Assembly (NCBI GenBank): GCA_028291765.1
Contig: JAQGNR010000009.1
Span: 3,223-67,222, forward strand
DNA length: 64,000 bases
Source: Herbaspirillum sp.
GTDB lineage: Bacteria; Pseudomonadota; Gammaproteobacteria; Burkholderiales; Burkholderiaceae_D
Reading direction: 5' to 3'
Position numbers and translations under genes: made by a program. Of the stretch, positions 34,841 through 54,940 are shown piece by piece (the first letter of the stretch is position 1; each line of letters opens with the position of its first letter). The notes beneath the pieces are model-generated. The model made no database searches. It had not been told where the DNA came from and was given only the letters and a program-made list of their open reading frames with translations.

Positions 34841-34868
34841 TGCTGAAATTTTTGGGGTGTTATTTCAA

Positions 34869-36855: not shown

Positions 36856-36998
36856 TGTCTTTAATTCTACCTTCGGTTGACAGGAAAGATACGATCGAGC
36901 GTTATTCGTCGCAATATAAAAATTTAGTTATGACCTGGCCGGCTATTTCCAGACCAAAATAATCTAGAGATAATAGGCCCCTCGTATGAGGAGTGAGC

Positions 36999-37083
36999 AT
37001 GAAGAAGAGCTGATACAACGACGAGCAGATTGTCAGGATCTTGCGGGAAGCGGCGAGTGATGAAGTGAAGCGGCTCAAGGCGA
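36999..37083 (+). mobile_element. Relic of an IS3-family orfA (transposase N-terminus), internally deleted and interrupted by a stop
   Basis: Hand translation gives MKKS*YNDEQIVRILREAASDEVKRLKA, which resembles IS3/IS407 OrfA (MKKSR.TDEQI..ILREAE...EAKRLKALE) with the HTH core missing. Confidence 0.45.
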
Positions 37084-37489: not shown

Positions 37490-37516
37490 GCTTGAATTTT
37501 TTAAGGGATATAAAGA

Positions 37517-38221: not shown

Positions 38222-38281
38222 ATAATATACACAGCCGTGCCGACACTGAATGGCACGGCATCAAGGGAGTAGTGAATCGCA

Positions 38282-39475: not shown

Positions 39476-39594
39476 AACGCCTTGCTACCTAAGACAAATT
39501 ACGAAGATTCGTGACGAAGTGCAGAAGATTCAATGGACAATAATCCGATTATAGTGCTCCAAAAAACGGCAGCCCAGAAATATTTACCGAGCAA

Positions 39595-40734
39595 ATGAAC
39601 GAAAAAAAAATCCCATTTAACTGGCCACATATGACCGGTAAAGAATTGCAGTACATTGCAGAAGCCCATGCAAATGGATGTTTGGCTGGCGATGGACCTT
39701 TTACCAAACTATGCCATGAATGGCTGGAAGAGCGTACTAAATGCTCTAAAGCATTACTGACGCACTCATGTACCGCCGCCTTAGAGATGGCCGCTTTGCT
39801 GCTGGACATTCGTCCCGGCGATGAAATTATTATGCCTTCCTACACGTTTGTTTCGACAGCAAACGCATTCGTCTTGAGAGGTGGCGTGCCGGTATTTGTT
39901 GATATTCGGGAAGATACGTTGAACTTGGATGAGAGTTTGATTGAGGCAGCTATTACGTCACGTACACGCGCGATCGCTCCTGTTCATTATGCTGGTGTAG
40001 CCTGTGAAATGGATACGATCATGTCCATTTCCAAGCATCATGGACTGAAAGTGGTGGAAGATGCCGCCCAAGGCGTGATGGCAAGCTATAAAGGCCGTGC
40101 TTTGGGCAGCATCGGTGACCTGGGGGCCTATAGTTTTCATGAAACAAAGAATGTGATTTCGGGAGAAGGCGGTGCGCTGTTGGTCAATGATCCGCAGTTA
40201 GTGTTGCGCGCTGAAATTATCAGAGAAAAAGGTACCGATCGTAGTCGTTTTTTTCGAGGCGAAGTCGACAAGTACACATGGCAGGAGGTCGGCTCATCCT
40301 TTCTACCTGGAGAATTAATTGCTGCCTTTCTTTCGGCACAACTTGAAGAGGGAGACCGGATCACTCAAAAGCGTTTAGCTGTGTGGCAGCGTTATCACGA
40401 GTTACTTCACCCCTTAGAAACCAGCGGCGCTCTTCGTCGTCCCATCGTACCTGATGAATGCCAGCATAACGCGCACATGTATTACGTGATACTTGCAGAT
40501 GGAATTGATCGGCAGAAAGTATTAGAAGAATTTAGACATGAAGGTATTTCGTCTGTGTTCCATTACGTTCCGCTTCATTCATCGCCAGCAGGTCAGAAGT
40601 ACAGTAGGGTCCATGGGACGTTGGATATGACAGATCGTCAATCCGAGCGATTAGTTCGTTTACCCCTTTGGGTCGAACTAACGGATGTGGAGCAAAATAG
40701 GGTCGTTGACTTACTCACCCGCGCGGTTTCTTGA
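39595..40734 (+). CDS. wecE: dTDP-4-amino-4,6-dideoxy-D-galactose (Fuc4N) transaminase-like, DegT/WecE family
   Basis: Long blocks match my recollection of E. coli WecE: EMAALLLDIRPGDEIIMPSYTFVSTANAFVLRG, HYAGVACEMDTIM, VEDAAQGVMASYKGRALGSIG, FHETKN, AEIIREKGTDRSRFFRGEVDKYTW, VFHYVPLHSSPAG and SERLVRLPL. Confidence 0.88.
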   Translation: MNEKKIPFNWPHMTGKELQYIAEAHANGCLAGDGPFTKLCHEWLEERTKCSKALLTHSCTAALEMAALLLDIRPGDEIIMPSYTFVSTANAFVLRGGVPVFVDIREDTLNLDESLIEAAITSRTRAIAPVHYAGVACEMDTIMSISKHHGLKVVEDAAQGVMASYKGRALGSIGDLGAYSFHETKNVISGEGGALLVNDPQLVLRAEIIREKGTDRSRFFRGEVDKYTWQEVGSSFLPGELIAAFLSAQLEEGDRITQKRLAVWQRYHELLHPLETSGALRRPIVPDECQHNAHMYYVILADGIDRQKVLEEFRHEGISSVFHYVPLHSSPAGQKYSRVHGTLDMTDRQSERLVRLPLWVELTDVEQNRVVDLLTRAVS

Positions 40735-40756: not shown

Positions 40757-41167
40757 TTAGTTCATGGCATTGCGTTTGCCGAAGCCGAAAACCCAAAATC
40801 GTGTCAAAAGAAACGAGGGAATTGATCCAAGTAGCGCCGCGACCAGAAAACCAGTGCGTTCACCATACGGTGTACCAAACCCTGCATCGATTACGTGGCG
40901 ACATATCGGTGAAAGAAACGATACCAAAGCCATAATGATCAAATTCGACACGACAAAACGCCAAAACAGTCCGCGTCGACCAAATATCCAAGACCGCTGA
41001 ATCAAAAAATTGACAATGATGAGCGGCATATAAGTTAACGCGCTTGCAAAAGAGTAAGCAATAGCTGAGTCGCTGCTCATCATTTTATAGATCAATAATT
41101 GCAGTGCCGTAGCGGCGACACCAAGAATGCCCCCATTAATAAAAAATTTTAGATATTGACGAATCAT
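40757..41167 (-). CDS. GtrA-family membrane protein
   Basis: MIRQYLKFFINGGILGVAATALQLLIYKMM..., with four hydrophobic segments. ATG 41167 gives an ATGA overlap with the upstream stop; the track start at 41227 is less likely. Confidence 0.7.
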   Translation of the reverse strand: MIRQYLKFFINGGILGVAATALQLLIYKMMSSDSAIAYSFASALTYMPLIIVNFLIQRSWIFGRRGLFWRFVVSNLIIMALVSFLSPICRHVIDAGFGTPYGERTGFLVAALLGSIPSFLLTRFWVFGFGKRNAMN

Positions 41168-41964
41168 GCTCGTTTGCGAATCACAATAATTTGATGCAAA
41201 GACCAATGCCGTGCAAGTGGCCGACACAGGGATTCGATCAAAGCCAATGGACGAGCCATGAATGAGGGCATTAGCTGACGGAAATTCAGACCGCCAGAAA
41301 ACAGGTAGCGTAATGCATTCAATTCGAAACCGCGATGGACGATTTCCAATTGTTTGCCAAACAAAGCTTCAAATCGCAGCAAATCACGCTGAAACACAAT
41401 GTGTGCCATTGCCTGATTTGCCCCCGAAAGAGGTCCACCGATCTCAGCAGTACGCCAATTTGGTGCGTTGGGATCGAAATGCTCGTCACTATGCAAATGT
41501 CGATGCAATAACTGAGAAGCAAAACCCCCGTGCGGTTCGATCAGGATACAGCCGCCGCCCGGGCGTAGAACACGCGTCAACTCTGCAAAGAAACTCTCTG
41601 GGTCGGGCAAATGATGAAATACATTAATGGCATATATGCAACGTACCGAATCGTCATTCAGCGCCATTGCCTGGGCATTGATCTCCATGTCAATGTGAGG
41701 CCCTTTTCGAACATCAGAAGTTATAAGTGCAGGACGTATACTCTTGAAAAAGCCGGCTCCTGTACCAAGCTCAATCTCCGTTCCCGAAACAACAAGGTAC
41801 CGGTCACATAAGCTAGCCATATCACGATAGAACGTTTCGAACGTTGAACGAAGCAACCGTTTTTTGAGCAAGATACTGGTATGTATATCAAGCAGAATAT
41901 TGTCGTCGACATCAACTCCGCGTACCTGGGAAGCGTAAAACCATTGGCGTAATTGCTTGAGCAT
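41164..41964 (-). CDS. Class I SAM-dependent methyltransferase
   Basis: Contains EIELGTGAGFF, IYAINVFHHLPDPESFFAELTRVLRPGGGCILIEP. Confidence 0.75.
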   Translation of the reverse strand: MLKQLRQWFYASQVRGVDVDDNILLDIHTSILLKKRLLRSTFETFYRDMASLCDRYLVVSGTEIELGTGAGFFKSIRPALITSDVRKGPHIDMEINAQAMALNDDSVRCIYAINVFHHLPDPESFFAELTRVLRPGGGCILIEPHGGFASQLLHRHLHSDEHFDPNAPNWRTAEIGGPLSGANQAMAHIVFQRDLLRFEALFGKQLEIVHRGFELNALRYLFSGGLNFRQLMPSFMARPLALIESLCRPLARHWSLHQIIVIRKRA

Positions 41965-41968
41965 GTAT

Positions 41969-42775
41969 TCAATCCTCTAATGTAGAAACATGTTGTGCAG
42001 CCTGATTGGCTAGGAAACCCGTAAGACTATCTTCATTAACGGGGATCGGTATATTTAGCAATTTAGCGGTACGTAGCCCCAAAACGATTAACGAGGCTGG
42101 TACAAAAATAATCCAGGGACGATGTCCAACTTCGGCAGCCGCATTCAACACTAACTGACGCAGACTGAATAATTGTTTCTCAAATAGATTTGCTTGAGGC
42201 ACTCGCTCGTAATTCGCGGCCAAGGTCAAGGTTTCCCGGCAAAGCTTTTCAATCGTAATGACAGGCACCAGCCCATACCCCCCATCAGGCAATGGAATTA
42301 GCGGTAAACGGCGAGCCCATTTACAAATCCTGCCATATATTCCTCCAGTTCCCAAAACTAGTCCTGGACGAACAATGACAATATCTGTCGCACCGGCCAA
42401 GCTCTGCTCTATGGCCAGCTTGGTCTGTCCGTAAAGCGAAGTGGCATGATCCCCAGCTGAATATGAAGAGAAGAAAATTTGCCGTCCGACACCCGCTTCA
42501 CGTAATTGGGTGACACACTTAAGCGTTTCATTCAGTGTCAATTGCGCACCGGCTGCCCCGGAAAAGTCATGCGCCAGATGGAAAGCACAGTCCACATCTT
42601 CCAGCGCAATCGCGGGTATCGGCGCCCCGAAGGCCCATTTCAATGTAATACCACCGTTAAAATTCTCCACCGCGCCGGAGCGACAAAGGGTGATTACCTC
42701 ATGGCCCTGTTCAAAGGCATAGCGGGCCAGATTGGCACCGATGAAGCCAGCACCACCGATGATTAATATCCGCAT
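41969..42775 (-). CDS. NAD-dependent epimerase/reductase (extended SDR)
   Basis: Contains MRILIIGGAGFIGANL and SLYGQTKLAIE (YxxxK). It overlaps the upstream GMC gene by 13 nt. Confidence 0.8.
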   Translation of the reverse strand: MRILIIGGAGFIGANLARYAFEQGHEVITLCRSGAVENFNGGITLKWAFGAPIPAIALEDVDCAFHLAHDFSGAAGAQLTLNETLKCVTQLREAGVGRQIFFSSYSAGDHATSLYGQTKLAIEQSLAGATDIVIVRPGLVLGTGGIYGRICKWARRLPLIPLPDGGYGLVPVITIEKLCRETLTLAANYERVPQANLFEKQLFSLRQLVLNAAAEVGHRPWIIFVPASLIVLGLRTAKLLNIPIPVNEDSLTGFLANQAAQHVSTLED

Positions 42776-44343
42776 TTCAAGGTCTCGTCTGCGATACGGG
42801 CGGCATTGGCCATTAGGGTCAAGGAATGATTTTTGGCAGGTAAGCTAGGAAGAACGCTGCCATCTACAATACGGACCCGCTTGCTATCCCACAATCTGCC
42901 ATCGATATGTGTCTCAAAAGGCCCAGGATAATGGCGCATCGGCAAACAGGCGGCATGGTGAAAACCCCAGCCCGGGGGAGACATTGAGGCAAGACGTTGA
43001 AGCGAATAAGCACCCAACGGCCGTAGCGCAGCAAGCAGTTTTTGGATCATATTGCCTTGAGAAAGTCGATGAGGATAATCAATCCTAATCGATCCATCAG
43101 ATTCGACACTAAGTTGATTTCCAGCAACAGGCTTGGACGTTTCCCAAATTTGGGCGACTAACATGCCCCCGATCAAATTAGGTAATAGTCGTATAGCGGA
43201 ATTTAAGGGTAACGGAATATCGGCAAGCAAGTCGGCCCAAAGAAGCGCGCCAGGATAATAAAAGCTGATCATGTTGCTGCGGGCCAGTCCGCCAAGAGTT
43301 GCCACGAGTTGTATGGGGAAACTTTGGGACGGGAAAGCGGCGCCGAATTTTTTTGGAATGAAGAGCGGCAGCAATGTCGGGGGATGGTCGATAAACGGCA
43401 GTTTCCGTCCGAACTCCTGCTTGTTCAATAAAACCAGACGAGCAGTTTGCATCGTGCCGCAACCTAAAAGAAGATGTCGAGCCCTTATCGTTTTGATTAC
43501 ATCATCGTTTCCTACGCACAGATCGATCTCGACATGCTCTGCCGATTCACGATAAGCGACCAGACGATGACCACCGAGATATGTCAAGCTTCCGCGAGTA
43601 ATCAATTCTTTGAGCGTACGCCGTGCTGTGTAAATCCCAGACTGTTCAGTAGAAAAGAATTCGGTTTCACCGAATTCATGTTGACTATATCCCCGATGCG
43701 GTTGAGTAAGAACGGCCAGTCTGGAGCGGCCTAATCGGAAATTTGCCTCATTAGTACGCTTGCGACGCATGCGATAACGGGTGAGAAGATATTCCGCAGC
43801 TGAAACGATCGGCGCCGGCGGCAGCATTCCTGTAGTTTCACCTAGAAAGCTATGCATATCGTCAACCTCACCTGCGATGCCGATATGTGCCTCCAGGTCT
43901 GCATAGTAACTATCTAGCGCGGCGGCTTTGAATGGCCAATCGCCGGCTTCGTCCAAATCTTTGTCGGTGTAGCGAAATAGTTGAGCGCCCCAGGCGTTTG
44001 ACATTCCCCCTGCAGCATAGCTGCCGGCGCCCTGGAGGAGACATTTATTTGCATCATCGAAGACGCGAAAAGTTTTGCCACCCAATATGTAACCCACGTT
44101 TGGCAAGCGCAATTTGGCATGAACGCGGCCGGGGTCAATCAGGTTCCCAAGCATCTCCCAGCGATGACCAAGCAAGGATTCGAAATCCCCGGATGCGAGT
44201 CCTCCGCGGAGCGTTGCGTGAGGAAAATTCCCCTGCGGTAAATCTCCTACATCGACGATGCAAACGTCCTTCCCTTCAAGACGGCGCCCTGCAGCGACTC
44301 CCGCTGGGCCGGAGCCCACGATCACATAATCAAAGGAGTCCAT
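42763..44343 (-). CDS. GMC-family FAD-dependent oxidoreductase
   Basis: Contains FDYVIVGSGPAGVAAGRRL and the C-terminal VDGSVLPSLPAKNHSLTLMANAARIAD. Confidence 0.75.
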   Translation of the reverse strand: MDSFDYVIVGSGPAGVAAGRRLEGKDVCIVDVGDLPQGNFPHATLRGGLASGDFESLLGHRWEMLGNLIDPGRVHAKLRLPNVGYILGGKTFRVFDDANKCLLQGAGSYAAGGMSNAWGAQLFRYTDKDLDEAGDWPFKAAALDSYYADLEAHIGIAGEVDDMHSFLGETTGMLPPAPIVSAAEYLLTRYRMRRKRTNEANFRLGRSRLAVLTQPHRGYSQHEFGETEFFSTEQSGIYTARRTLKELITRGSLTYLGGHRLVAYRESAEHVEIDLCVGNDDVIKTIRARHLLLGCGTMQTARLVLLNKQEFGRKLPFIDHPPTLLPLFIPKKFGAAFPSQSFPIQLVATLGGLARSNMISFYYPGALLWADLLADIPLPLNSAIRLLPNLIGGMLVAQIWETSKPVAGNQLSVESDGSIRIDYPHRLSQGNMIQKLLAALRPLGAYSLQRLASMSPPGWGFHHAACLPMRHYPGPFETHIDGRLWDSKRVRIVDGSVLPSLPAKNHSLTLMANAARIADETLKCGY

Positions 44344-44824
44344 ACCAAGTCTTTTGCAAACGTCCGTGGATTAACCTGAACAGAGCCGAGGTCATAATAA
44401 AAACCATACTTGTCAGAGCTCTTGCAAATCCGCCTGAACAACGCACGAATTCGGAATGGCTTGCGTCTGATTCCGCCAGATATGACAGCAACAATAACTT
44501 TGCGCTCAAGATGTGGCGTTTTGTGCCGCCACGCAACCAGGGTTCTATGCCCATGGCGTCTAACTGTCGAGCGACGACAATGGATACTGTACCCAGTTGA
44601 AGTGGGGGGGCTGTACGCAATTCTTTAATTTCCTCGTGCGCACGAAAATATCTATCGATGATTTCGGAAGATGGATCTCTGTGGAATAGGCAACGATGTA
44701 AATAACATACCTCTTGCTTCATCGCCTCGCGTTCAATCGCTGGCGATGCTATATCCGCAAGAGAGGCATCAGTATTTTTCAATTGATTGTTCACATCCTC
44801 AGCGATTGAGAAGTTCACGTTCAA
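44330..44824 (-). CDS. Hypothetical protein (no family recognised); start uncertain
   Basis: The ORF is wedged with overlaps between the GT2 and the GMC oxidoreductase. Candidate starts are TTG 44824, GTG 44818 and ATG 44722. It contains a C7 tract. Confidence 0.4.
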   Translation of the reverse strand: MNVNFSIAEDVNNQLKNTDASLADIASPAIEREAMKQEVCYLHRCLFHRDPSSEIIDRYFRAHEEIKELRTAPPLQLGTVSIVVARQLDAMGIEPWLRGGTKRHILSAKLLLLSYLAESDASHSEFVRCSGGFARALTSMVFIMTSALFRLIHGRLQKTWYGLL

Positions 44825-45731
44825 AATTAGACTTATCCTGATGGGTGATCGAATCGAGAATCAGGCCAATCGCCGCGAAAATGATCGCAACAATTTCCAA
44901 ACCGGTAGCAAGAATGGCTAGCGGCACATGTCGAATATATTGCTCGCGCATCCAATCCTGAAATACAGGAATACCCGCGACAAATCCTATAAAGGCAAAG
45001 AAAAGTGCGGCGCCGCCGAAGAAAGTCAACGGTCGGTAGTATCGCAAGATGCGAGCAATAGTACTTATGACTTTAGCGCCATCATGCAAAGTATTTAATT
45101 TCGAAAAACTACCTGCCGGGCGGTCACGATAATTGATAGGTATCTCAATAATTCGAAAGCGTTTGTCCAAAGCATGCAAAGTCATATCGGTTTCTATTTC
45201 AAATCCCTCAACTAGAATTGGATAGCTCTTCACAAACAGTCTATTGAACACTCGGTAACCGCTCATTATGTCAGCCAACTTGGCGCGGAAAAGCTTATTG
45301 ACCAAATAACGTACCAACGAATTTCCCAATCCATGCAAAGCACGCTTGTTTTCGGCGGCATAATGTCCGGCACTATGCCGATCGCCGACGACCATATCGG
45401 CTTCATTGGCAATGATTGGCGCAATTAATTCCATGGCCTGTTCAGCCGGATACGTCGAATCCGCATCTGCAAGAACATAGATATCGGCTTCGACGTCAAG
45501 GAAAGCGCGTCTGACAGCATTTCCTTTCCCCGGCCGTTGTTCATTGATAACGCCACCCTTGCATCCAATTAGCAAAAGCGTTTTATTTGCCAGCGATTCG
45601 GTAGTATCAGTTGAGCGATTGTTGATTACCCATACTTCTGCCTCAGGTAAGGCACGGTGAAAATCACCGATGGTAGCTGCAATTGTTTGTTCTTCATTAT
45701 ATGCGGGCAAGATAACTGCAATCTTATTCAT
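44799..45731 (-). CDS. GT2, polyprenyl-phosphate glycosyltransferase type with two C-terminal TM helices
   Basis: Contains MNKIAVILPAYNEEQTIAATI...VWVINNRSTDTT, LADADSTYP and C-terminal hydrophobic segments. The start is taken at ATG 45731. Confidence 0.8.
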   Translation of the reverse strand: MNKIAVILPAYNEEQTIAATIGDFHRALPEAEVWVINNRSTDTTESLANKTLLLIGCKGGVINEQRPGKGNAVRRAFLDVEADIYVLADADSTYPAEQAMELIAPIIANEADMVVGDRHSAGHYAAENKRALHGLGNSLVRYLVNKLFRAKLADIMSGYRVFNRLFVKSYPILVEGFEIETDMTLHALDKRFRIIEIPINYRDRPAGSFSKLNTLHDGAKVISTIARILRYYRPLTFFGGAALFFAFIGFVAGIPVFQDWMREQYIRHVPLAILATGLEIVAIIFAAIGLILDSITHQDKSNFERELLNR

Positions 45732-45752
45732 CAAAAATTCTCTCATGCAAAA

Positions 45753-45777
45753 TCCATTGCAGACTGTGTGCAATGGA
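45753..45777 (-). terminator. 9-bp stem hairpin followed by TTTT on the minus strand (weak terminator/attenuator candidate)
   Basis: The sequence is tccattgca-gactgtg-tgcaatgga. On the transcribed strand it is followed by ttttgcatgagag and the GT2 ATG. Confidence 0.3.
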
Positions 45778-45970
45778 CATCTTGTTCATCGATATAGCAT
45801 AGAATTGCCGCATAAAAATGCCACATTGTATACGCCAAGAAAAGGATGTACCACAATTTTTGGTGCTGGTTATTACAGGTCATCCCATGCTTCGCATCAG
45901 CGTCGCCCCTCTCCGCTGGCTTCTTGTACTTGATAAAAATCCGGGCATGCGAACTGACAGCGTTACGAGA

Positions 45971-48439
45971 TCAGTCTGCGGTGCGTAGCGATATTTCCCG
46001 TATGTTCACCGCTTGGTCAGTTTGGCCCCCACCGTAAACAATTGCCTTTACCGCGCCTTCGGGACGAGTAATCACGCGCCGGATCGTAATGCCTTCGGGC
46101 TTGCAGGGATGGAGCTCAATGTCGGTGGAAATAAATACATCTTTGGCATTTGTCCAATTAATCTGCGAACGAAACAAATCATTTTCAGGACAAGCCACTT
46201 TCATTTCCAATAATGCTTTCTTATTCAGACCAAAATCGACCGTCTGCGTAATTGCGGAATTCACAGATGCATCGACCCCAGAAGCAGTCGGAATCGCACC
46301 GTTAAGTTTCCATGAAGGTTCCAGTTTGTGCAAATCGGGCCCTACAATACGCTCTCGTGTATACAGCAGTTCTGGCTTGACCAAACCCACACGGATGTTG
46401 TGAAACCTGAATACTTCGTCAGTCAAATTCATCACTTCAGCTTCATGCGGTTCATTCTGGCCTATTGTATGAACTATCACCTCAATGCCCAATTGTCCGA
46501 TAAGCCTGCCGAAGTGGGTAAATTTGATATCCGACGTAAAGAAAGACCAGGAATGCCAGGAGTCTGCAATAGTTCCCCCAGGAAAATGACTGAAAACCGG
46601 ATCGGTTCCCAACACTAAAATCTGTCGATGGCTCAGGTCATCCATTTTACGAATAATGTCGCCGACTACCGCGACAGGCTTATTACGCACCAGAAAAGCC
46701 TCACCGGCAGCGCGATCTAAGAACAGGGATGGGTCAAATTGCTGAAGCGGCCCGGACGCGACGGGAAATCGCGCCAAATTAATAAGGCATAAAACCGATA
46801 CAAGCAAAGTTGTGCTGATACGAGGGTATGCAATTCCTGAAAGCGCCCAACAGCCCAAAATAAGAAACCAGGGAATAATCTGATATATATAGCGCAGATA
46901 CGCTTGCGAATTGAACACCAAAACGACATAAAACATCGCGGCCATTATGGCAGTTAACATTGCCCAGCGACGATGAACGATCGCACTTAAAACCGATAGT
47001 GGAAAAAATATTAACAATACAATTCCGACCGCCCCATTTGCTGCGGATTCGCCAAACCCTTTGGAACTAATTACCGCATCCCAAAATAACTGGATGCTTA
47101 ATGGCTTCTCATACATCGGATTCGAAAATCCCCGGCCATTACCAAAGACGCTACCAGTACTAAAAAATGGAGAATGAAATATGTCGTTATAGAAGGGAAA
47201 AAACGGATTCCCAGTTTTCCAATAGGCCACGAGGTAAGGAGGCAGCCCGCAGACGAAGAAGGCAATAACTGCAATTGCAACTACCGCAAATGTTACGGAC
47301 TGAAATTTCCCTGTCCTGGAACGTATCCAGGCACCGGCAAGCAGTAACGGAATAATGGGTGCGCCAAGCAATTTAATTGCACAGGCGTATCCTGCGGTGA
47401 CACCCATTACAAACCAACGGCCATTCGTTACATTGGTGGTGCCAATTAGTTCGGCAAAACAGATTAAAAAATAAAATCCAAGTGCCGACTCTACGAAAAC
47501 ACTGCTTGCAATCATAAGTGTTAACGGCAAAGTCAAAAGGATCGCAGGCACCGTCAACGCAGCCAACGATCCGACACGGTGCTTCATCATTCGATATGAG
47601 AGCCATGCAGTAGCAAACAGGAACGAAGAGGACATCAGCCTCGCTCCTTGCTCCCCGCCTAAAAAATATGAGGGGACCAAGAGCCAGTTGGCACCCATGG
47701 GCTCAACCGCCCAGGTGTACTGCGTAACATCAAACTTCCAAAGTTTGGACTCAAGAATACGGGCGGGAATATTAAGATGCATCGATAACGCATCATGTCC
47801 GATATCCGGCAACATCGTCACCATCAATACCAGAGTGGCACCAGCTAAAACAAATGCAAGGATGATAATTTCAGGCCACGGGCGTCGCTGGAACGCAAGC
47901 AAATTTTCTAACTTTATATGAAGCCTGCCATTTTTTTGAAGTCTGCACGCACTAAAGAGCGCCGCAGATGAAAACAAAACAAAAAGTACAGCAGGGGTGC
48001 AAATTGGAAAATGCACTAATAACCCTATTAATGATCCGATAATGGCAAATCCCACAGCACAATCACGAGTAGTCCAGATATGCCCATCAGCATCCTCGCT
48101 CAATCCAAGAATATATCCGCCAATTAGCGCCGCACATAACCAAAACCAGACAACGGACATGAGGGGGCCTAGTCCAGTCAATCCGACGCATAAAATCAAA
48201 GACGGAACAATCAGGAAAAGAAATGGTATCCGCAGTCTCAGCAAAATAATGTAGCCGATCAAACCGATGGCAAGGCACTCACGAAAATTTCTTCCCACAA
48301 CTCCTGAGGACCAAATGACTTCTTTCCACCAACCTTGCGTTACTGTTGCGCCAAACCCGATACCTAGCAGTGACAGCGCGACAATCAACAATACTATTGA
48401 CCACACTTGCTCGTTATTTTTTTTCATGCGAATTTTCAT
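45971..48439 (-). CDS. Large GT-C-like polytopic membrane glycosyltransferase with a soluble C-terminal domain of about 250 aa
   Basis: About 16 hydrophobic segments are followed by a hydrophilic C-terminus. The start is taken at ATG 48439, which is preceded by gagg; the track start at 48601 overlaps the acyltransferase gene. Confidence 0.65.
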   Translation of the reverse strand: MKIRMKKNNEQVWSIVLLIVALSLLGIGFGATVTQGWWKEVIWSSGVVGRNFRECLAIGLIGYIILLRLRIPFLFLIVPSLILCVGLTGLGPLMSVVWFWLCAALIGGYILGLSEDADGHIWTTRDCAVGFAIIGSLIGLLVHFPICTPAVLFVLFSSAALFSACRLQKNGRLHIKLENLLAFQRRPWPEIIILAFVLAGATLVLMVTMLPDIGHDALSMHLNIPARILESKLWKFDVTQYTWAVEPMGANWLLVPSYFLGGEQGARLMSSSFLFATAWLSYRMMKHRVGSLAALTVPAILLTLPLTLMIASSVFVESALGFYFLICFAELIGTTNVTNGRWFVMGVTAGYACAIKLLGAPIIPLLLAGAWIRSRTGKFQSVTFAVVAIAVIAFFVCGLPPYLVAYWKTGNPFFPFYNDIFHSPFFSTGSVFGNGRGFSNPMYEKPLSIQLFWDAVISSKGFGESAANGAVGIVLLIFFPLSVLSAIVHRRWAMLTAIMAAMFYVVLVFNSQAYLRYIYQIIPWFLILGCWALSGIAYPRISTTLLVSVLCLINLARFPVASGPLQQFDPSLFLDRAAGEAFLVRNKPVAVVGDIIRKMDDLSHRQILVLGTDPVFSHFPGGTIADSWHSWSFFTSDIKFTHFGRLIGQLGIEVIVHTIGQNEPHEAEVMNLTDEVFRFHNIRVGLVKPELLYTRERIVGPDLHKLEPSWKLNGAIPTASGVDASVNSAITQTVDFGLNKKALLEMKVACPENDLFRSQINWTNAKDVFISTDIELHPCKPEGITIRRVITRPEGAVKAIVYGGGQTDQAVNIREISLRTAD

Positions 48440-48542: not shown

Positions 48543-49514
48543 TTACTTTTCAGGTCTTTGCTTTTTGAATTGTCCAATCCGGCTATCGATGCCAACAACA
48601 ACAGCCCAAGAGAGTAACAAGGTCACAACAAATGATATGCAGAAAAATTCGAAAGAACGACCTTGATGGAAAAATAGAAGCACCCATGCACCCACTACCG
48701 TATGAAAAAGATAAACGGGATAGGATAGATCGCCAAGAATGCGATCCAGTTTTCCCGTCTTTTGCGAAGCAAAAGATATGACGACCCACGCTGAAAGCAG
48801 CGTTGAAAAATAAATGCCATATCCCCACGGCCACGGATCGTACCAACGCCAGATGAGACCATGAATTAACCATACAAGCACGCTCAGTATTGGCGCTTTG
48901 AATCTTTCAAGCACATCTCTATGATGAGAAACCAGGGATCCAAATGCGAACACCGCAAAGCAAGTTAAAAAGTAAGAGTAGCGAATCCCGAATGTATCGG
49001 AATGAAAGCCATATTGTGCACTCAACAAAAGACTCAAAACCAAACCCAACCAAGCTGCAGGCCGGCTAAAAGCCATCAAAGGTATCAATATGTAGACGCC
49101 GATTTCAACCGCCAATGCACCTGCCACCGGGACAAACATGCCGGCAACGGGAATAGGCAACAGAGTGACGTTGACAAACCATTCCAACCAGCCATGCGGC
49201 CTTACGAACTGCGGATTTAAGAACGCAGGATCAACCCCGTATCTGTGCAATATTACGACCGCCGCCGCCCCGCAGACACAGGCTATCCAGTAAATCGGAA
49301 AAATACGCAGAAAACGATTGTAGGCATAGTCCCGCAAACCATCTACTGTCGGCCCATATTTGTGACGTAGCACATGCGTCATCAGAAAGCCGCTCAGCAG
49401 ATAAAAACCCCAAACCGCGTATGCGGCAGGGCCTGGCAACATGCCTTCCCACAGATGCGAAATAACGACCAAAAATGCCAAAAAGAAACGCCAAGTCCCA
49501 AAACCAAGTTTCAT
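48543..49514 (-). CDS. Acyltransferase family 3 (membrane O-acyl/acetyltransferase)
   Basis: Contains FGTWRFFLAFLVVISHLW and about 10 hydrophobic segments. Confidence 0.8.
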   Translation of the reverse strand: MKLGFGTWRFFLAFLVVISHLWEGMLPGPAAYAVWGFYLLSGFLMTHVLRHKYGPTVDGLRDYAYNRFLRIFPIYWIACVCGAAAVVILHRYGVDPAFLNPQFVRPHGWLEWFVNVTLLPIPVAGMFVPVAGALAVEIGVYILIPLMAFSRPAAWLGLVLSLLLSAQYGFHSDTFGIRYSYFLTCFAVFAFGSLVSHHRDVLERFKAPILSVLVWLIHGLIWRWYDPWPWGYGIYFSTLLSAWVVISFASQKTGKLDRILGDLSYPVYLFHTVVGAWVLLFFHQGRSFEFFCISFVVTLLLSWAVVVGIDSRIGQFKKQRPEK

Positions 49515-49528
49515 GCTTATCCCAATTA

Positions 49529-52500
49529 TTATTGTCTTGCTCTAGTGTCATTACTCCAAAGCGTAAGCGGTCGTGCATGACGCTCACTGCTCAATCCAAG
49601 ATCGCTCAGAATGCCGTCAAGCGTATTCCAGGCAGCTTCCGCCCCCCAGGCTTCTCCCGCAAAAGCTATTCCCGCCTGACTTACCTCCGACCACAGTGAT
49701 TCGTCTTGATAGAGTCGGATGACCTCTTCAGCAAATGCGGCTGCGCCATCAGCGACCAGAATATTCCGACCTGATGTCAACGACATACCGTCGGCCGCAA
49801 GAGACGTAGCCACCGCTGGTAACCCGGCCGCCATTGACGATCCGATCTTGCCCTTGATGCCGGCACCGAAACGCAGCGGAGCGACAGCGACTCGCATCTG
49901 ATCGAGCAAGGATGATAGATCTTCTATAAACCCGGTAACAATGACATCTTCGCTCGCCAAAGCCGTAACTTGCACCGGCGCATTGCTTCCCACGGCATAA
50001 AAGCGTACTCCCGGCAATCTCTGACGAAGAATAGGCATAATTTCATTTGCGAAATATATTACGGCATCGACATTCGGCGTATGTTGATAGCCGCCGACAA
50101 ATACGATGTCCCGCCTATCTTTAAATGTCGTATTTGTCCCCTTCACCTCCATGATCAATGGAAATACATGGATCTTTTGGTCAGGTAACTCTTGCTGCAG
50201 AACATCACGCTCCGTCATGCTTACGACAATGCTTGTATCAACTGCACGAATTGCATCGAACTCCACCATCTTCATTGTTTCTGCGGCTTCCTGCTTCACC
50301 TTATCGTCAAACAAGTTCGCTTCCCTCGACATGCGAAGGTAATGTAAATCGACAGTATGAAATAACACTTTGGCTTGGGGCGAATAATGGCGTACCACCT
50401 CCAGATGATGATGAACAACCATGGGACGAAACATCAGGACCAGATCATAGCGCTGCCCAAAATCCTTCAAGTGCTGAGCAACTGACTCGCAATAGGGTGA
50501 GTAAAGCACTTCTATACCAGCGCGTTGCAGGTCCGGGGTAAATTCCGGCATGTACAAGAAATTATGCTCAGGGATAAAGGTCACCTGAAAATCCATTTCG
50601 CGCAGCAGCAACAGCATATTGAACGTAATAATCGATCCGGCATCCTGGTTGGGCGTCGGCGTGCAATGATCCAGCACCAGAACACGGCGCTTGGCCATGC
50701 GATCCTTGGCGTCATCGGCATCGACGCCATTTTCCTGGTGATTCGCCAGACGTGCCTGCCAACGTTGAAACTGCTTCTTCAGATTGGCAACTTGATATGC
50801 TTTAGCGCCCTGACCGGTATCTGTGCCGGATGTAATACCTTCGTAATGCACAACAACAGATAGTGGTTGATAAATGACACGATACCCATGCTCGCGAATT
50901 TTCAGCGCAAGATCGGAATCCTCGCAGTAAGCAGGGAGGTAATGCTCGTCAAACCCGCCCATCTCTTCAAACAAGGTTTTGGGTACCATGATGGATGCAC
51001 CCGAACAATAATCTACCTCGCGTGCATAGTTATACATCGGTGATAACTGGTCTTGATTCCGGCCGAAATTCCAGGCACTTCCGTCTTTCCAGATAATCCC
51101 GCCCGCTTCTTGCAGGCTACCGTCCGGATACACAAGCTTGGAACCTGCAAGCCCTGTCCCCGGAAAATCCTGAAAGGTCCTCACAAGCGCATCGAGCCAG
51201 CCTGGGCTTACTTCTGTGTCATTGTTGAAAAAGCACAAATATTGCCCTATGGCCGCCTTGGCGCCGATATTGCAGGATCGGATGAAACCTTGATTTTCCT
51301 GATTTGATATCAGCCGTATATGTTTTATTTCACGGAGAATATTGGCCGAGTCGTCCGGCGAACAATCATCGACAACGATAATCTCGAACGGAATGGCCGG
51401 TGGATTTGCGGCAATAGATGCCAGACAGCGAAGCGTATAGTTGCTCTTGCCATAGATGGGCACGATAACAGAGACAACAGGCGTCAGCGAAGTGCTGAGA
51501 TCGATAGGGTTAGCGGTAAGATCGTACTCCGAAAATGGCGTTCCGAAGACCGCCCTCTCCTGCAGCCTATGCCCTGAAATGTGCCCGAGACTTGTCAATA
51601 GGATACGGGGAGCAAATCTTTGCAAAAACTGCCGGTGAGCCGCCCTGGTCCGATCGCTTAAGGGCAATCGCATATACATTGTCCTGCCAGCACGAATCAA
51701 TACCTTGGCATACACCTTGGCTTGTATCCCTGGCTGTGACACCCAACGGCGTCCCTCTCGTAAAAAGAGTGTGGCCTTCCAGGAGTTACTTGACGTAATT
51801 CGGGAAATCTCATTTTGATGCTCTACCTTCAATTCGGCAATTTCTTGCTCAAGCTTCCTATATGCAAACTCTTTCTTCAATTCGGGGGTTGCATGTCCAA
51901 GCTTTTCCTGCAAATCGGCAAGTTGGCCATCTCTTTCCGCAACCACTCTTCTCCATTCCAGGATCAACTCGGAATCGTTGATCGGCTGATCCAATATTCC
52001 CGAAGCAAATGAAGGAAGCGCACCATCGGAAGCGACCGCAACCCAATATACCGGCTTGCTCATTCCCGCCGATTGATTGACAGCCCCACTCTCAGACGAA
52101 TAGCTCTGCAGGGGCGTCGCTGCCGACTCCGAAAAAATACAAGATCCGTAAACAATACGCTGACCAAAATAGGCAACATTTTCAAAATAATTTCCGACAA
52201 GTTGTTTGAATTCTTGCTCAAACAATTCCTTGACGTGATACGGATTGCTATAGTTTGGATCAATAGAATAATGCTGCTTATCGGGACTGGAAATTATCAC
52301 CACACCGCCCGGACGCAAGACACGCTTGAATTCCTGCATCATCTTTTCGTGCTCATCATGATGTTCGATAGTCTCGAAACTCACGATCATATCCACACTC
52401 GCATCCGGTAATGGTATGGCAGCACAACTACCTGCCAAGAATGAAAGATTGTCTTTTTTATAGCGGCGCTTGGCGTGCTCAACCGCTTCTTCAGAGATAT

Positions 52501-52702
52501 CGACACCAATTACTTTCAGCGCTTTGTCGGCTAGCATGGCCGAGCCGTAACCTTCACCACTGGCGATATCAAGTACCGTTTTTCCCTCGGCAATTTCACA
52601 AGCCTGCAAATAGCGATGCAAATGTTCAAGCACAATATTGCCTTGCTCTTCGGGTACAAAACGTTCGCCCGTAAACGCCATACTGTCTAATTCATTCTTC
52701 AC
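49529..52702 (-). CDS. Multidomain O-polysaccharide enzyme: N-terminal SAM methyltransferase, coiled coil, GT2, then C-terminal GT4-like domain
   Basis: Contains FTGERFVPE...VLDIASGEGYGSAMLA; a heptad-like segment ERDGQLADLQEKLGHATPELKKEFAYRKLEQEIAELKVEHQNEI; VSVIVPIYGKSNYTLRCLASI...IVVDDCSPDDS; and the C-terminal FVGGYQHTPNVDA...APLRFGAGIKGKIGSSMAAGLPAVAT. GTG 52702 overlaps the wzt stop; the alternative is ATG 52681. Confidence 0.8.
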   Translation of the reverse strand: MKNELDSMAFTGERFVPEEQGNIVLEHLHRYLQACEIAEGKTVLDIASGEGYGSAMLADKALKVIGVDISEEAVEHAKRRYKKDNLSFLAGSCAAIPLPDASVDMIVSFETIEHHDEHEKMMQEFKRVLRPGGVVIISSPDKQHYSIDPNYSNPYHVKELFEQEFKQLVGNYFENVAYFGQRIVYGSCIFSESAATPLQSYSSESGAVNQSAGMSKPVYWVAVASDGALPSFASGILDQPINDSELILEWRRVVAERDGQLADLQEKLGHATPELKKEFAYRKLEQEIAELKVEHQNEISRITSSNSWKATLFLREGRRWVSQPGIQAKVYAKVLIRAGRTMYMRLPLSDRTRAAHRQFLQRFAPRILLTSLGHISGHRLQERAVFGTPFSEYDLTANPIDLSTSLTPVVSVIVPIYGKSNYTLRCLASIAANPPAIPFEIIVVDDCSPDDSANILREIKHIRLISNQENQGFIRSCNIGAKAAIGQYLCFFNNDTEVSPGWLDALVRTFQDFPGTGLAGSKLVYPDGSLQEAGGIIWKDGSAWNFGRNQDQLSPMYNYAREVDYCSGASIMVPKTLFEEMGGFDEHYLPAYCEDSDLALKIREHGYRVIYQPLSVVVHYEGITSGTDTGQGAKAYQVANLKKQFQRWQARLANHQENGVDADDAKDRMAKRRVLVLDHCTPTPNQDAGSIITFNMLLLLREMDFQVTFIPEHNFLYMPEFTPDLQRAGIEVLYSPYCESVAQHLKDFGQRYDLVLMFRPMVVHHHLEVVRHYSPQAKVLFHTVDLHYLRMSREANLFDDKVKQEAAETMKMVEFDAIRAVDTSIVVSMTERDVLQQELPDQKIHVFPLIMEVKGTNTTFKDRRDIVFVGGYQHTPNVDAVIYFANEIMPILRQRLPGVRFYAVGSNAPVQVTALASEDVIVTGFIEDLSSLLDQMRVAVAPLRFGAGIKGKIGSSMAAGLPAVATSLAADGMSLTSGRNILVADGAAAFAEEVIRLYQDESLWSEVSQAGIAFAGEAWGAEAAWNTLDGILSDLGLSSERHARPLTLWSNDTRARQ

Positions 52703-54123
52703 GGCTCATTCCTTACTACTTCAAGTTTTATTCGATGCATCGGTATGCCAATAAGTCCCGTAGCCGAATTGCTCGACTCCGACTTGAACATCAAGGCATC
52801 GGAAATCCAGTGATGCTGAATATGCTGATCTTGTGTTCCACTTGCAATTGCGACACTCACACTGTAATCGCCCACAGGAATGATTGGCATCGTAAATGTA
52901 AATCTGGCCTGTACTTCATCTCCCTCGGCACCCAATATTTGCTCATCCATATAGCTGAGATAGGTATTGTCGCCAAACAGGGTTTGGCCTAGCCGATCTT
53001 TGACTGTAAAGCCAATAATTATCCCATCCATCGGTGCGCGCACGATGGCCTCTATCGCCAGAGTGACTACTTCACCGCCGACGACCCATGAAAATGGAAC
53101 GTCATCTTCATCCAGAAATTCAACTGACGTAATTTGCGCACCGCCTTTGCCGAATGACCCAGCCTCCGGCTCAAATCTAAAAATTTGCAAATCATTACGT
53201 AAATTGCTGGCGTTGATAAATGGCAGACGCTGATCTCTTTGAAGACGATCGGTCTTCTGATTCTTGTCTAATTTAAGTCTGGTGGTGCTGCTCTTACCCT
53301 GCTGTGCTTCGTAAAAAGCTTCCAGATACGCCTCGCACACATCTTTAGGGCTACCCTCCTGTAACACTTCGCCTTTTTCCAGCCAGATCACATGATTGCA
53401 GAGACTTTTTATAGCGCTCGTATCATGGCTGACAAAAAGCACGGTTCCCGTCTCCATGAATGACCGCAAGAATCGCATACATTTTTGCGTAAAAAATGCA
53501 TCCCCAACCGCCAGCGCTTCATCAATCACGAGAATGTCCGCATCGACATGCGCGATAACAGCAAAAGCAAGACGCACCATCATGCCGCTGGAATAAGTTT
53601 TTACCGGCTGGTCGATAAAATCGCCGATGTCCGCAAACGCTTCAATTTCAGCAAATTTCGCTGAGGTCTGCTCGCGCGTCAAGCCTAAAACGCCCGCATT
53701 CATAAAGACGTTTTCCCTGCCGGTGAACTCGGGATTAAAACCCGATCCAAGCTCCAATAGCGCGGCAACACGACCATTGATTTCAATCTGGCCCCCGCTT
53801 GGATAAAGCGTTCCGCAGATGATTTGCAGCAATGTCGATTTACCCGAACCATTACGCCCGATAATGCCGACGCTGCCGCCCTTCTTGATCTCGAATGAAA
53901 TATCCCTCAAAGCCCAGAATTCACGAAAATACTGTTTGGATGGCCTTCCGCTCAAACGCTGCAGGCGAGGTGCTGCAAACTGCTTGAGCCGGTCATGCGG
54001 CTTGTCGTAAATCTGGTAACACTTGCTGAGCTTACTCACACGAATTGCGATGGCATCGCCATGATCCTGACTGCTCACTTCTGTCACTTTATTGGCGGAC
54101 GCATCAATTTCATTAGAGGACAT
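52699..54123 (-). CDS. wzt: O-antigen ABC transporter ATP-binding protein with a C-terminal carbohydrate-binding extension
   Basis: Contains Walker A GRNGSGKST, signature YSSGMMVRLAFA and Walker B ILVIDEALAVGD. A beta-rich C-terminal domain of about 200 aa follows (GAQITSVEFLDEDD...GFTVKDRLGQTLFGDNT...GDYSVSVAIA). The start is taken at ATG 54123. Confidence 0.9.
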   Translation of the reverse strand: MSSNEIDASANKVTEVSSQDHGDAIAIRVSKLSKCYQIYDKPHDRLKQFAAPRLQRLSGRPSKQYFREFWALRDISFEIKKGGSVGIIGRNGSGKSTLLQIICGTLYPSGGQIEINGRVAALLELGSGFNPEFTGRENVFMNAGVLGLTREQTSAKFAEIEAFADIGDFIDQPVKTYSSGMMVRLAFAVIAHVDADILVIDEALAVGDAFFTQKCMRFLRSFMETGTVLFVSHDTSAIKSLCNHVIWLEKGEVLQEGSPKDVCEAYLEAFYEAQQGKSSTTRLKLDKNQKTDRLQRDQRLPFINASNLRNDLQIFRFEPEAGSFGKGGAQITSVEFLDEDDVPFSWVVGGEVVTLAIEAIVRAPMDGIIIGFTVKDRLGQTLFGDNTYLSYMDEQILGAEGDEVQARFTFTMPIIPVGDYSVSVAIASGTQDQHIQHHWISDALMFKSESSNSATGLIGIPMHRIKLEVVRNEP

Positions 54124-54940
54124 CCGCAAAACCCTTCTTGGTCTTCTGAAACCAGGCAAAACCGGACCAAGCGATAACTACAGCGACGATTGTATAAATA
54201 CCCAAGCCTATCCAATTCGGCAGATGCCCCCAAATAAGAACTTCGCGGGCTTGCTCGATAATGAAAGTCAGCGGATTCGCCATAATCCACACACGGAATC
54301 GTTCCGGCACGGCACTCACCGGATAAAAAACTGGCGAGAGAAACATCAATACAGTCGTGATAATCGTAATTGTCTGACCGACATCCCGCAAAAAGACGCC
54401 TAGAGAGGCCAGCATCCAGGAAATACCGGTGATAAGGATAACGAGGGGTAATAAGACGAATGGAATCAAAATCACCGTCCAATTCAAATAGCCATTGAAA
54501 AGCACAAAAGCCGCCAACAATACACTCATGCTGATAAGACTGTGAAACAGTGCTGCGCCGATCGCAACTATCGGCAATATTTCAATCGGGAAAACGACTT
54601 TCTTGACGTAATTGGCATTACCGAGAATCAAACTGGGAGACCGATTGAGGACCTCTGCAAACAGGCTCTGCACAATTAGACCGGCAAATAGCAGGACCGC
54701 GAATTGCGTTTTGCTTTCACTCGCGCCCGCCCAGCGGGATTTGAAAATTTCGGAAAAAACAAACGTATAAACAGTCAACATGAAGACTGGGTTGAAGAAT
54801 GACCATGCAAGTCCTAGTACAGACCCTTTATAACGGCCGACGACTTCACGACGAGCCATCTGAAAAATCAGTTGCCGATTGCGCCACAGACTCTTTGCAA
54901 GTGCCTGCAAAGTGGCGGGCTGTGCTGCATGAGGATTCAT
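54113..54940 (-). CDS. wzm: O-antigen ABC transporter permease (ABC-2 type)
   Basis: Contains LWRNRQLIFQMARREVVGRYKGSVLGLAWSFFNP and six hydrophobic segments. Confidence 0.88.
   Translation of the reverse strand: MNPHAAQPATLQALAKSLWRNRQLIFQMARREVVGRYKGSVLGLAWSFFNPVFMLTVYTFVFSEIFKSRWAGASESKTQFAVLLFAGLIVQSLFAEVLNRSPSLILGNANYVKKVVFPIEILPIVAIGAALFHSLISMSVLLAAFVLFNGYLNWTVILIPFVLLPLVILITGISWMLASLGVFLRDVGQTITIITTVLMFLSPVFYPVSAVPERFRVWIMANPLTFIIEQAREVLIWGHLPNWIGLGIYTIVAVVIAWSGFAWFQKTKKGFADVL

Follow-up and report, generated by a model that had tools for sequence, protein, structure and literature searches.

Why should a flavin-dependent oxidoreductase and a reductase be encoded between a glycosyltransferase of the lipid-linked type and a flippase-like protein? 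The question is raised by a gene module in a stretch of 64,000 nucleotides from Herbaspirillum sp. (contig JAQGNR010000009.1 of assembly GCA_028291765.1, positions 3,223 to 67,222 of the forward strand; the whole stretch is called the window below). Seven open reading frames (ORFs), all on the minus strand, occupy positions 40757-48439 of the window. In the order of transcription they encode a large GT-C-like membrane protein, a family 2 glycosyltransferase (GT2), a small orphan protein, a flavin adenine dinucleotide (FAD) oxidoreductase of the GMC family, a short-chain dehydrogenase/reductase (SDR), a methyltransferase and GtrA. The same seven genes and families had been named in a preliminary description made from the sequence alone, and all of them hold in the ORF list, in the Pfam and NCBIfam searches and in the fold comparisons. 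Our answer, to which we give slightly better than even credence, is that the module is a three-component periplasmic glycosylation system of the Gtr type, which adds a side-branch sugar to an O-polysaccharide exported by an ABC transporter, and which carries a tailoring cassette acting at the cytoplasmic face, between synthesis of the lipid-linked donor and its flipping. The cassette is strongly conserved and apparently uncharacterised, and it is embedded in a system of a known kind.

The junctions within the module were read from the DNA. The genes of the small protein and the GMC enzyme overlap by 14 nt and those of the GMC enzyme and the SDR by 13 nt; a gap of 4 nt separates the SDR and methyltransferase genes, and the methyltransferase stop and the GtrA start share the tetranucleotide ATGA. 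These four junctions are as the preliminary description gave them. It had also chained the GT2 gene to that of the small protein by a 26-nt overlap, which exists only if the small protein starts at the TTG at 44824; with a start at the GTG at 44794 (the database call of 154 aa, the position obtained by arithmetic) there is a 4-nt gap after the GT2 gene. The spacing between the GT-C and GT2 genes is about 239 nt.

Three of the proteins are those of a Gtr-type system. The GT2 (44799-45731, minus strand; 310 aa from an ATG, 324 aa from a TTG at 45773) matches PF00535 (6.9e-18) and, in NCBIfam, AglJ (TIGR04182, 3e-62), dolichyl-phosphate hexose transferase (1e-21) and PpgS (2e-14). Its best sequence matches in the PDB are the P. 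furiosus dolichyl-phosphate mannose (Dol-P-Man) synthase 5mlz (4e-11) and ArnC, and two hydrophobic segments (residues 233-259 and 266-298) lie at its C-terminus. Judged by these matches, the enzyme is of the polyprenyl-phosphate type, akin to GtrB, ArnC, DPMS and AglJ, as had been proposed from the sequence. It is also the sole candidate for the donor synthase, no gene for a UbiA-type polyprenyl-phosphate phosphoribosyltransferase being present in 40.7-49.5 kb. GtrA (40757-41167, minus strand; 136 aa from an ATG) matches PF04138 at 38.6 bits, against a cut-off of 26.1 (1.4e-9), and has about four hydrophobic segments; it is the putative flippase of the finished lipid-linked sugar.

The third component, the GT-C protein (45971-48439, minus strand; 822 aa from an ATG, 876 aa from an upstream TTG), had no match in Pfam or NCBIfam. 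A polytopic membrane domain of about residues 1-565 (hydrophobic to about residue 563) is followed by a soluble tail of about 260 aa. We compared an AlphaFold2 model of the protein (predicted local distance difference test, pLDDT, 75; predicted template modelling score, pTM, 0.70) with known structures by Foldseek. The membrane part matched ArnT (5ezm/5f15; template modelling score, TM, 0.51-0.57 on the target, E ~1e-4) and then AftD and AglB, while a C-terminal beta-sandwich at about residues 660-822 resembles carbohydrate-binding modules (CBMs), the last ~160 residues matching the beta-sandwich modules CBM16, CBM4 and CBM22. Fourteen homologues were found, named in NCBI 'glycosyltransferase family 39 protein', the best of them in Herbaspirillum with 57% identity; an Arenicella homologue matches the Pfam PMT family (PF02366) at 2e-6. 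A loop motif, P-D/E-x-G-H-D-A-L-x-x-H-L (with D216 and H221), which follows the helix at residues 188-208, is kept in every homologue that covers it. By its modelled fold the 822-aa protein appears to be a GT-C transferase, ArnT/PMT-like with a CBM-like tail. About six N-terminal helices precede the D216/H221 motif (residues 1-185; window 47885-48439); except for a GWW motif they are poorly conserved among the homologues, and they may form an extra membrane module. With GT2, GtrA and GT-C all present and periplasmic transfer predicted, the module would be a member of the Gtr-type three-component class.

The flavoenzyme encoded within this frame (42763-44343, minus strand, 526 aa) has an N-terminal FAD motif, VIVGSGPAG, at residues 7-15, in which G10, G12, P13 and G15 are invariant; the homologues listed are 53-71% identical to it. 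A profile of 20 homologues searched against the PDB retrieved the alpha subunit of the Burkholderia cepacia FAD-dependent glucose dehydrogenase (FAD-GDH; 6a2u_B, 1.8e-5), pyranose 2-oxidase and 5-hydroxymethylfurfural (HMF) oxidase. The AlphaFold2 model (pLDDT 78.8, pTM 0.85) shows the two-domain GMC fold and matches many GMC enzymes (E 1e-24 to 1e-17, TM 0.55-0.70). The top Foldseek matches are the FAD-GDH alpha subunit and the large subunit of fructose dehydrogenase (E ~1e-24 to 1e-22, TM 0.66-0.70), and the next in rank are bacterial and fungal pyranose 2-oxidases and C-glycoside 3-oxidases. In the homologue alignment H462 and H506 are invariant and N505 nearly so; presumably they sit where GMC enzymes have their catalytic His and His/Asn pair, and in a local sequence alignment with HMF oxidase PAKNHSL stands opposite PTANTNL. 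Of the cysteines only C295 and C524 are invariant, with C28 nearly so. No VAO-type or ALO domain was found in the Pfam scan. According to the model, then, the flavoenzyme has a GMC fold, and its nearest structural relatives are sugar oxidisers and not DprE1. This bears out the preliminary description, in which the enzyme was of GMC type rather than VAO type and a structural comparison with pyranose oxidases/dehydrogenases and with DprE1 was put forward as a check; the model likewise resembles sugar oxidisers and not choline or alcohol oxidases.

Immediately upstream lies the gene of the small protein (44330-44824, minus strand, 164 aa when read from the TTG), which had been listed as an unknown protein. 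It is present and it is an orphan; what the earlier listing missed is that it is the tightest-coupled partner of the GMC enzyme. Its start is uncertain (44722, 44794 or 44824; about 130-154 aa), and the conserved core begins about 24 residues inside the 154-aa call. Neither a Pfam scan of 11 members nor a profile search of PDB sequences gave a meaningful match, and a word-index search with the protein retrieved only itself. An exhaustive HMMER search found 171 representatives of the family among 1.84 billion clusters, nearly all of them 110-165 aa long. The C-terminal stretch is moderately hydrophobic. The hidden Markov model (HMM) of the family also reached into Phycisphaerales, Bryobacterales and Aminicenantes, where it picked out a small ORF immediately before the genes of GMC relatives sharing only 26-32% identity.

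A small subunit beside a GMC catalytic subunit has a precedent among the best structural matches of the model, the B. cepacia FAD-GDH and the Gluconobacter fructose dehydrogenase, whose PDB entries 6a2u and 8grj are gamma-alpha complexes. In these enzymes the gene of the small subunit stands just upstream of that of the catalytic subunit. They are periplasmic, with a twin-arginine (Tat) signal on the small subunit, a 3Fe-4S cluster and a cytochrome c partner. The window set differs on each count: no Tat or other signal sequence is present in any of 11 aligned small proteins, the GMC enzyme has neither a signal peptide nor a clustered cysteine motif, the module has no cytochrome gene, and the small protein is unlike any solved chain in sequence. 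A periplasmic FAD-GDH-like dehydrogenase with a hitch-hiker subunit was therefore considered and rejected. The pyranose 2-oxidases and C-glycoside 3-oxidases (7qf8, 7dve, 8qve) likewise have a GMC fold, and they convert a secondary hydroxyl on a glycosidically bound sugar into a ketone, which is the chemistry we propose here; they are, however, soluble catabolic enzymes acting on small glycosides, are 13-17% identical to the window enzyme, and have no small partner or lipid context.

Downstream of the flavoenzyme gene the SDR (41969-42775, minus strand, 268 aa) matches PF01370 ('Epimerase', the extended type) at 2.5e-9. Residues G7, G13, S103, Y115 and K119 are invariant in 11 orthologues, distant ones included, and the protein is predicted to be an intact oxidoreductase with a Ser-Tyr-Lys triad. 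The methyltransferase (41164-41964, minus strand, 266 aa) is a class I enzyme dependent on S-adenosylmethionine (SAM; PF08241, 1.2e-10). For its specificity the searches gave only generic class I matches; the top PDB matches were designed repeat proteins, which we took as spurious. A homologue adjoins a GtrA gene in Herbaspirillum as well.

Is this arrangement kept elsewhere? We assembled a census of 35 distinct loci with a GMC enzyme at least 41% identical, taken from three homologue neighbourhoods, a genome scan and a metagenome scan; the denominators given here are the loci with enough flank. The small protein is encoded upstream of the GMC gene in 28 of 28 loci. This count includes two truncated or frameshifted GMC genes that the script had scored as negative and beside which the ORF list shows a small gene. 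In 25 of 26 the GMC gene is followed by that of an SDR. The GT2 gene is directly upstream in 14/20 and anywhere in the locus in 17/20, GtrA is downstream in 14-15 of 20, and the methyltransferase, between SDR and GtrA, in 14 of 21, so that it belongs to the cassette often but not always. In the nine genome loci the genes of the small protein and the GMC enzyme overlap by 14 nt in eight, and those of the GMC enzyme and the SDR by 13 nt in seven. The order homologous GT-C, GT2, small protein, GMC, SDR is repeated, as far as the contigs reach, in five metagenome loci (L055/L056, L057, L058, L063 and L072), and in L055/L056 it runs on in full through the methyltransferase and GtrA. The neighbourhood of GMC, SDR, GtrA, GT2 and a large polytopic membrane protein, whose conservation elsewhere had been put forward as a check, is real and strong.

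The loci are spread over Beta-, Gamma-, Alpha- and Zetaproteobacteria and Desulfovibrio (the hosts named are Pseudorhodoferax, Rhodoferax, Methylococcus, Arenicella, Rhizobium sp. RU36D, Parvibaculaceae, Mariprofundaceae and Desulfovibrio), and the occurrence in Desulfovibrio argues against an obligate requirement for oxygen. Divergent sets of small protein, GMC, SDR and GT2 were found in Phycisphaerales, Bryobacterales, Aminicenantes and Eiseniibacteriota, so that the label 'proteobacterial' under which the module was first described is too narrow. Nor does the GT-C protein keep the fixed place it was then given. The large membrane partner varies by locus, being a PMT_2 protein with DUF7024, a DUF1420 protein, a TPR-tailed protein or an unannotated polytopic protein. 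In Methylococcus (L004/L007, 13175-15640) the partner is an 821-aa polytopic protein with a fused GtrA at its N-terminus and DUF7024 at its end, and no similarity was detected between this protein and the GT-C protein of the window; the large membrane partner is therefore not orthologous across loci. Conserved genes for donor synthesis next to a changing, acceptor-specific GT-C are the pattern expected of Gtr-type systems.

The census also bears on the plainest of explanations, that genes which act independently merely happen to stand together in a crowded O-antigen cluster. O-antigen clusters are low-GC mosaics, and the module does lie within a low-GC island (about 40-50% GC, with flanks of 55-59% GC); in addition, a promoter and terminator scan of 40.5-49.7 kb stayed at chance level, with no signal above the shuffled expectation. 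Since order, overlaps and fusions are conserved across phyla in unrelated surroundings, the synteny census already contradicts this explanation, which we hold to be the least probable of those considered here.

The fusions concern the small protein and the SDR. The small domain is fused to the C-terminus of the SDR in two proteins (P0281 and P0288) and in an Eiseniibacteriota locus (L021); the fusions are ~418 aa long with the SDR as their N-terminal half, and in L021 (8307-10004) the fused gene stands directly upstream of the GMC gene. We also considered the C-terminal extensions of ~150 aa on the SDRs of Herbaspirillum (430 aa) and Rhizobium (405 aa) as diverged small domains, which were not significant with the HMM (E ~0.1). 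From the existence of SDR-small protein fusions, together with the recurrence of the 14-nt and 13-nt overlaps, we infer a physical complex of the small protein with the GMC enzyme and the SDR. We propose that the small protein is a subunit of the GMC enzyme and SDR, or an adaptor for them, and it may serve as a membrane tether or as a bridge to the SDR.

How, then, could the module work? In the scheme that we favour, the membrane-anchored GT2 would load a sugar from a nucleotide sugar onto undecaprenyl phosphate. The GMC enzyme, with its translationally coupled small protein, would next oxidise one hydroxyl of the lipid-linked sugar to a carbonyl; here we infer the lipid-linked substrate of the redox pair, the position oxidised and the electron acceptor. 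Reduction of the carbonyl by the SDR, with NAD(P)H and on the other face, would yield the epimer, for which there may be no nucleotide-sugar route. The methyltransferase could then methylate the sugar, a step that would be optional, about one third of the loci having no such gene. GtrA, acting as its family suggests, would flip the finished donor, and in the periplasm the ArnT-like GT-C would transfer the sugar to the polysaccharide, the presumed acceptor, which the CBM-like tail would hold. The cassette enzymes would work in the cytoplasm, given that they are soluble, lack signal and Tat sequences and need FAD, NAD(P)H and SAM.

Two variant loci are of use in judging this scheme. In a metagenome-assembled genome of Parvibaculaceae (L013; OZ240687.1, 6975-12861) a class-III aminotransferase, a GT2 split into two ORFs, the small protein, the GMC enzyme and a formyltransferase-GtrA fusion are encoded, and there is no SDR. 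The fusion protein is 368 aa long, with the formyltransferase domain N-terminal and the GtrA domain C-terminal. Read most simply, the locus has the GMC enzyme make a carbonyl on a lipid-linked sugar, with amination and then formylation following at the membrane immediately ahead of the flipping step; the product implied is a formamido sugar linked to the lipid. The aminotransferase and the formyltransferase-GtrA fusion thus point to an intermediate in which the sugar, already on its lipid carrier, has been oxidised to a carbonyl, and it is this carbonyl, presumably aminated in Parvibaculaceae, that the SDR of the common cassette would reduce. The second variant is that of Herbaspirillum sp. 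RTI4 (L051; JAVIWQ010000002.1, 3906-22294), where a GT2, GtrA, a GNAT protein, a PIG-L deacetylase, the 430-aa SDR, a GMC enzyme and the 57%-identical GT-C are followed further on by a methyltransferase-GtrA pair and then by a second GMC gene beside a paralogous GT-C; a 624-aa membrane protein is encoded in the locus too. Each of the two GMC genes adjoins a paralogue of the window GT-C, 833 aa long in one case and 841 aa in the other. The whole resembles a series of related tailoring modules, and the gene set of the locus fits with the tailoring of a lipid-linked sugar.

Several points weigh against epimerisation on the lipid carrier, and two rival accounts draw on them. The first is the class-III aminotransferase of the Parvibaculaceae locus, which may mean that a primary hydroxyl is oxidised, in which case there would be no simple epimerisation by reduction. 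Class-III aminotransferases pair with GMC dehydrogenases on C6 aldehydes in aminoglycoside pathways, for example in 6'-amination. In the rival account that draws on this pairing, the lipid-linked sugar is oxidised by the GMC enzyme at its primary hydroxyl, C6, and the resulting aldehyde goes on to a uronic acid (maybe methyl-esterified), to a 6-amino sugar in the variant locus, or, once it has enolised and the SDR has reduced it, to a sugar inverted at C5. Primary alcohols are common substrates of GMC enzymes, and a methyltransferase with no assigned specificity leaves room for esterification. We regard this account as improbable. The top structural neighbours of the GMC enzyme oxidise ring positions, namely C1, C2, C3 or C5; nearly all loci of the census have, after the GMC gene, an SDR that keeps its ketoreductase triad, and simply re-reducing a C6 aldehyde would be futile; and UDP-uronic acids are easily made by other routes.

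The second point concerns the SDR, whose nearest solved sequence relatives are nucleoside diphosphate (NDP)-sugar epimerases, so that it could act on a nucleotide sugar; more generally, a lipid-linked substrate was not shown directly by any of our results. The corresponding account keeps the three-component system and places the work of the GMC enzyme, SDR and methyltransferase ahead of loading by the GT2, on a soluble precursor that may be a nucleotide sugar, a sugar phosphate or a free sugar. The best solved relatives of the SDR are indeed GDP- and CDP-sugar epimerases. A further argument comes from Rhizobium leguminosarum bv. viciae 248, where plasmid pRle248b (L112; 42604-53434) encodes a GMC relative, 28% identical and named only 'FAD-dependent oxidoreductase', which is preceded, with a 4-nt overlap, by the 405-aa SDR; nearby are a GT2, a 656-aa polytopic hypothetical protein, a GHMP kinase and an HAD-IIIA protein, none of them with an annotated function, and matches of this kind occur in 20 Rhizobium plasmids. 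The kinase and HAD protein suggest sugar activation. The cassette itself, however, has no kinase or nucleotidyltransferase. The window SDR is shorter than its NDP-sugar relatives (268 aa versus 326-347 aa) and aligns with them over the Rossmann half only, which fits a substrate other than a nucleotide sugar and does not prove it. Moreover, the enzymes that the GMC model resembles in structure use sugars that are free or in glycosidic linkage, not NDP-sugars, and the formyltransferase-GtrA fusion, together with an SDR gene next to that of GtrA or the methyltransferase, places late tailoring at the membrane. Among the alternatives this is the most serious one, and still an unlikely one.

Further points also count against on-lipid tailoring. 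Two metagenome loci (L069 and L070) have small protein, GMC, SDR and methyltransferase genes and no GT2 homologue detected nearby, with flanks in L070 of 5 kb upstream and 9 kb downstream; the donor synthase may be unlinked there or of another type. The match of the GMC enzyme to PF05199 is marginal (25.1 bits, cut-off 24.6) and covers the last 34 residues only, and the models of the GT-C and GMC proteins are of moderate confidence (pLDDT 75-79).

A last rival would move the chemistry from the sugar to the carrier: the GMC enzyme and SDR would modify the lipid, for example the alpha-unit of the polyprenol, to give a dolichol-like carrier preferred by the AglJ-like GT2. It draws on the closeness of the GT2 to archaeal Dol-P hexosyltransferases, on the oxidation of alcohols by GMC enzymes and on the part that an SDR takes in eukaryotic dolichol synthesis. 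The cassette, though, has neither a polyprenol kinase nor a double-bond reductase, the structural neighbours of the GMC enzyme are sugar oxidoreductases, and the variant with aminotransferase and formyltransferase-GtrA cannot be explained in this way, which makes the account very improbable. We therefore return to tailoring of the lipid-linked sugar itself and compare it with the systems already described.

Among published systems the nearest in concept is that for pentofuranoses described by Kelly et al. (PNAS 2024, PMC11127046). In Citrobacter youngae O1/O2, ORF12-15 account for a lipid-linked monosaccharide that is made at the cytoplasmic face, optionally epimerised and flipped, after which a GT-C with a C-terminal CBM adds it to an ABC-dependent O-polysaccharide; ORF12 is the founder of family GT136, a GT-C with a C-terminal CBM (PMC11127046). 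The window resembles this system in the overall logic and in the architecture of the GT-C, the likeness to GT136 being one of architecture alone. In Citrobacter the donor synthase is a UbiA-type enzyme dependent on phosphoribosyl pyrophosphate (PRPP), with a phosphatase domain, the flippase is of the MATE type, and the epimerase is a single GalE-like SDR or, for arabinofuranose, a pair of DprE1/E2 homologues (PMC11127046). In the window these places are taken by a GT2 synthase and a GtrA flippase, and the tailoring set consists of the GMC enzyme, a short SDR and the orphan small protein, to which many loci add the methyltransferase. It was Kelly et al. who introduced auxiliary epimerases for systems of this kind, and they knew of no others in O-antigen side-chain systems (PMC11127046). 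In the literature we found no description of a GMC enzyme in such a glycosylation system; the coverage was incomplete, so that this is not proof of absence.

The preliminary description had compared the module with the mycobacterial Rv3789-DprE1-DprE2-AftA locus. As a functional lead the comparison has lasted: a flavoenzyme oxidase and an SDR-fold reductase stand beside a GtrA-type protein and a GT-C, the SDR, which is of the extended PF01370 type, is encoded next to the flavoenzyme, and DprE1/DprE2 oxidise and then reduce a polyprenyl-phosphate sugar (summarised in PMC11127046), the logic that we propose for the cassette. As a claim of homology it fails. DprE1 has a VAO/PCMH-type fold and the window enzyme a GMC fold; the SDR is short; the mycobacterial donor is made from PRPP by a UbiA-type synthase and the window donor by a GT2; the window GT-C is ArnT/PMT-like with a CBM-like tail, unlike AftA; and the small partner protein, obligatory in the window cassette, has no place in the mycobacterial locus. 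The cassette would thus be a functional analogue of DprE1/DprE2, convergent and not homologous. The GtrA/GtrB/GtrC systems of Shigella and Salmonella phages and the ArnC/ArnD/ArnE-F/ArnT system share with the window a GT2 with C-terminal transmembrane helices, a small flippase and a variable GT-C. ArnD is a precedent for modification of a sugar while it is on undecaprenyl phosphate. Classical Gtr systems, however, have no redox tailoring step, and ArnD is a deformylase and not an oxidoreductase.

A broader generalisation can be drawn from these comparisons, which we offer tentatively, placing it just short of an even call: the complex of GMC enzyme, small subunit and short SDR would be a widespread convergent counterpart of DprE1/DprE2 acting on polyprenyl-phosphate sugars made by GT2 enzymes, either epimerising them or feeding an aminotransferase and formyltransferase, and would so give rare side-branch sugars without a nucleotide-sugar pathway. 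It would amount to a general and so far unrecognised layer in the diversification of surface glycans, in at least five phyla. Redox tailoring on the lipid carrier has so far been documented for ribose-derived pentofuranoses, by DprE1/DprE2 and by the Citrobacter SDR, and DprE1/DprE2 is an important drug target in tuberculosis. If the proposal is true, a second, unrelated set of enzymes would do the same for GT2-made donors, and on-lipid epimerisation would be a general route to rare sugars, one that could explain surface sugars of unexplained biosynthesis. The conserved GMC subfamily and the orphan small-protein family would then acquire functions, the cassette could serve as a marker for modified O-antigens and other glycans in genomes and metagenomes, and its enzymes might be usable as tools in glycoengineering.

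Elsewhere in the window, a second module on the minus strand (22080-28881) resembles a three-component system. It comprises a GT2 with two C-terminal transmembrane segments (27868-28881), an FAD oxidoreductase of the DAO family (26708-27865), an unannotated 262-aa protein (25919-26707), whose sole PDB match, an SDR, is non-significant (E 0.16), a xylose-isomerase-like TIM-barrel protein (25083-25922), a soluble GT2 (23897-24721) and a PMT_2 GT-C (22080-23900), all on the minus strand. This region had been taken as a second oxidase/reductase pair tied to a lipid-carrier GT2. The DAO-type flavoenzyme next to a membrane-anchored GT2 is there, but neither a clear reductase nor GtrA was recognised among the genes scanned at 22-29 kb.

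As for the surroundings of the seven-gene module, the low-GC island is an ABC-transporter-dependent O-polysaccharide locus. Upstream, on the same minus strand, positions 49529..54940 encode a 1057-aa methyltransferase-GT2-GT1 fusion (matching Methyltransf_11, Glycos_transf_2 and Glyco_trans_1_4), Wzt with a C-terminal carbohydrate-binding domain (ABC_tran and Wzt_C, 1.7e-35) and Wzm (ABC2_membrane); genes of the dTDP-rhamnose pathway lie upstream of the module on this strand as well. The Pseudorhodoferax locus has the same overall organisation, including the arrangement of fusion, Wzt and Wzm. Directly beside the module is the gene of an acyltransferase-3 family membrane protein (48543..49514, minus strand; PF01757, 8.5e-13), a probable O-acetyltransferase for the same glycan; a close homologue (1.5e-130) adjoins the GT-C in the Pseudorhodoferax locus and another is found in the Herbaspirillum locus. 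On the other side a convergent operon on the plus strand (33914-40734) encodes a GT2, an ATP-grasp protein resembling L-amino-acid ligases, a class I/II aminotransferase-like ORF and a WecE-type dTDP-4-amino-4,6-dideoxyhexose transaminase (TIGR02379, 1e-196), the gene of which ends 23 nt before the GtrA stop; this gene content suggests an amino-acid-decorated amino sugar in the same glycan.

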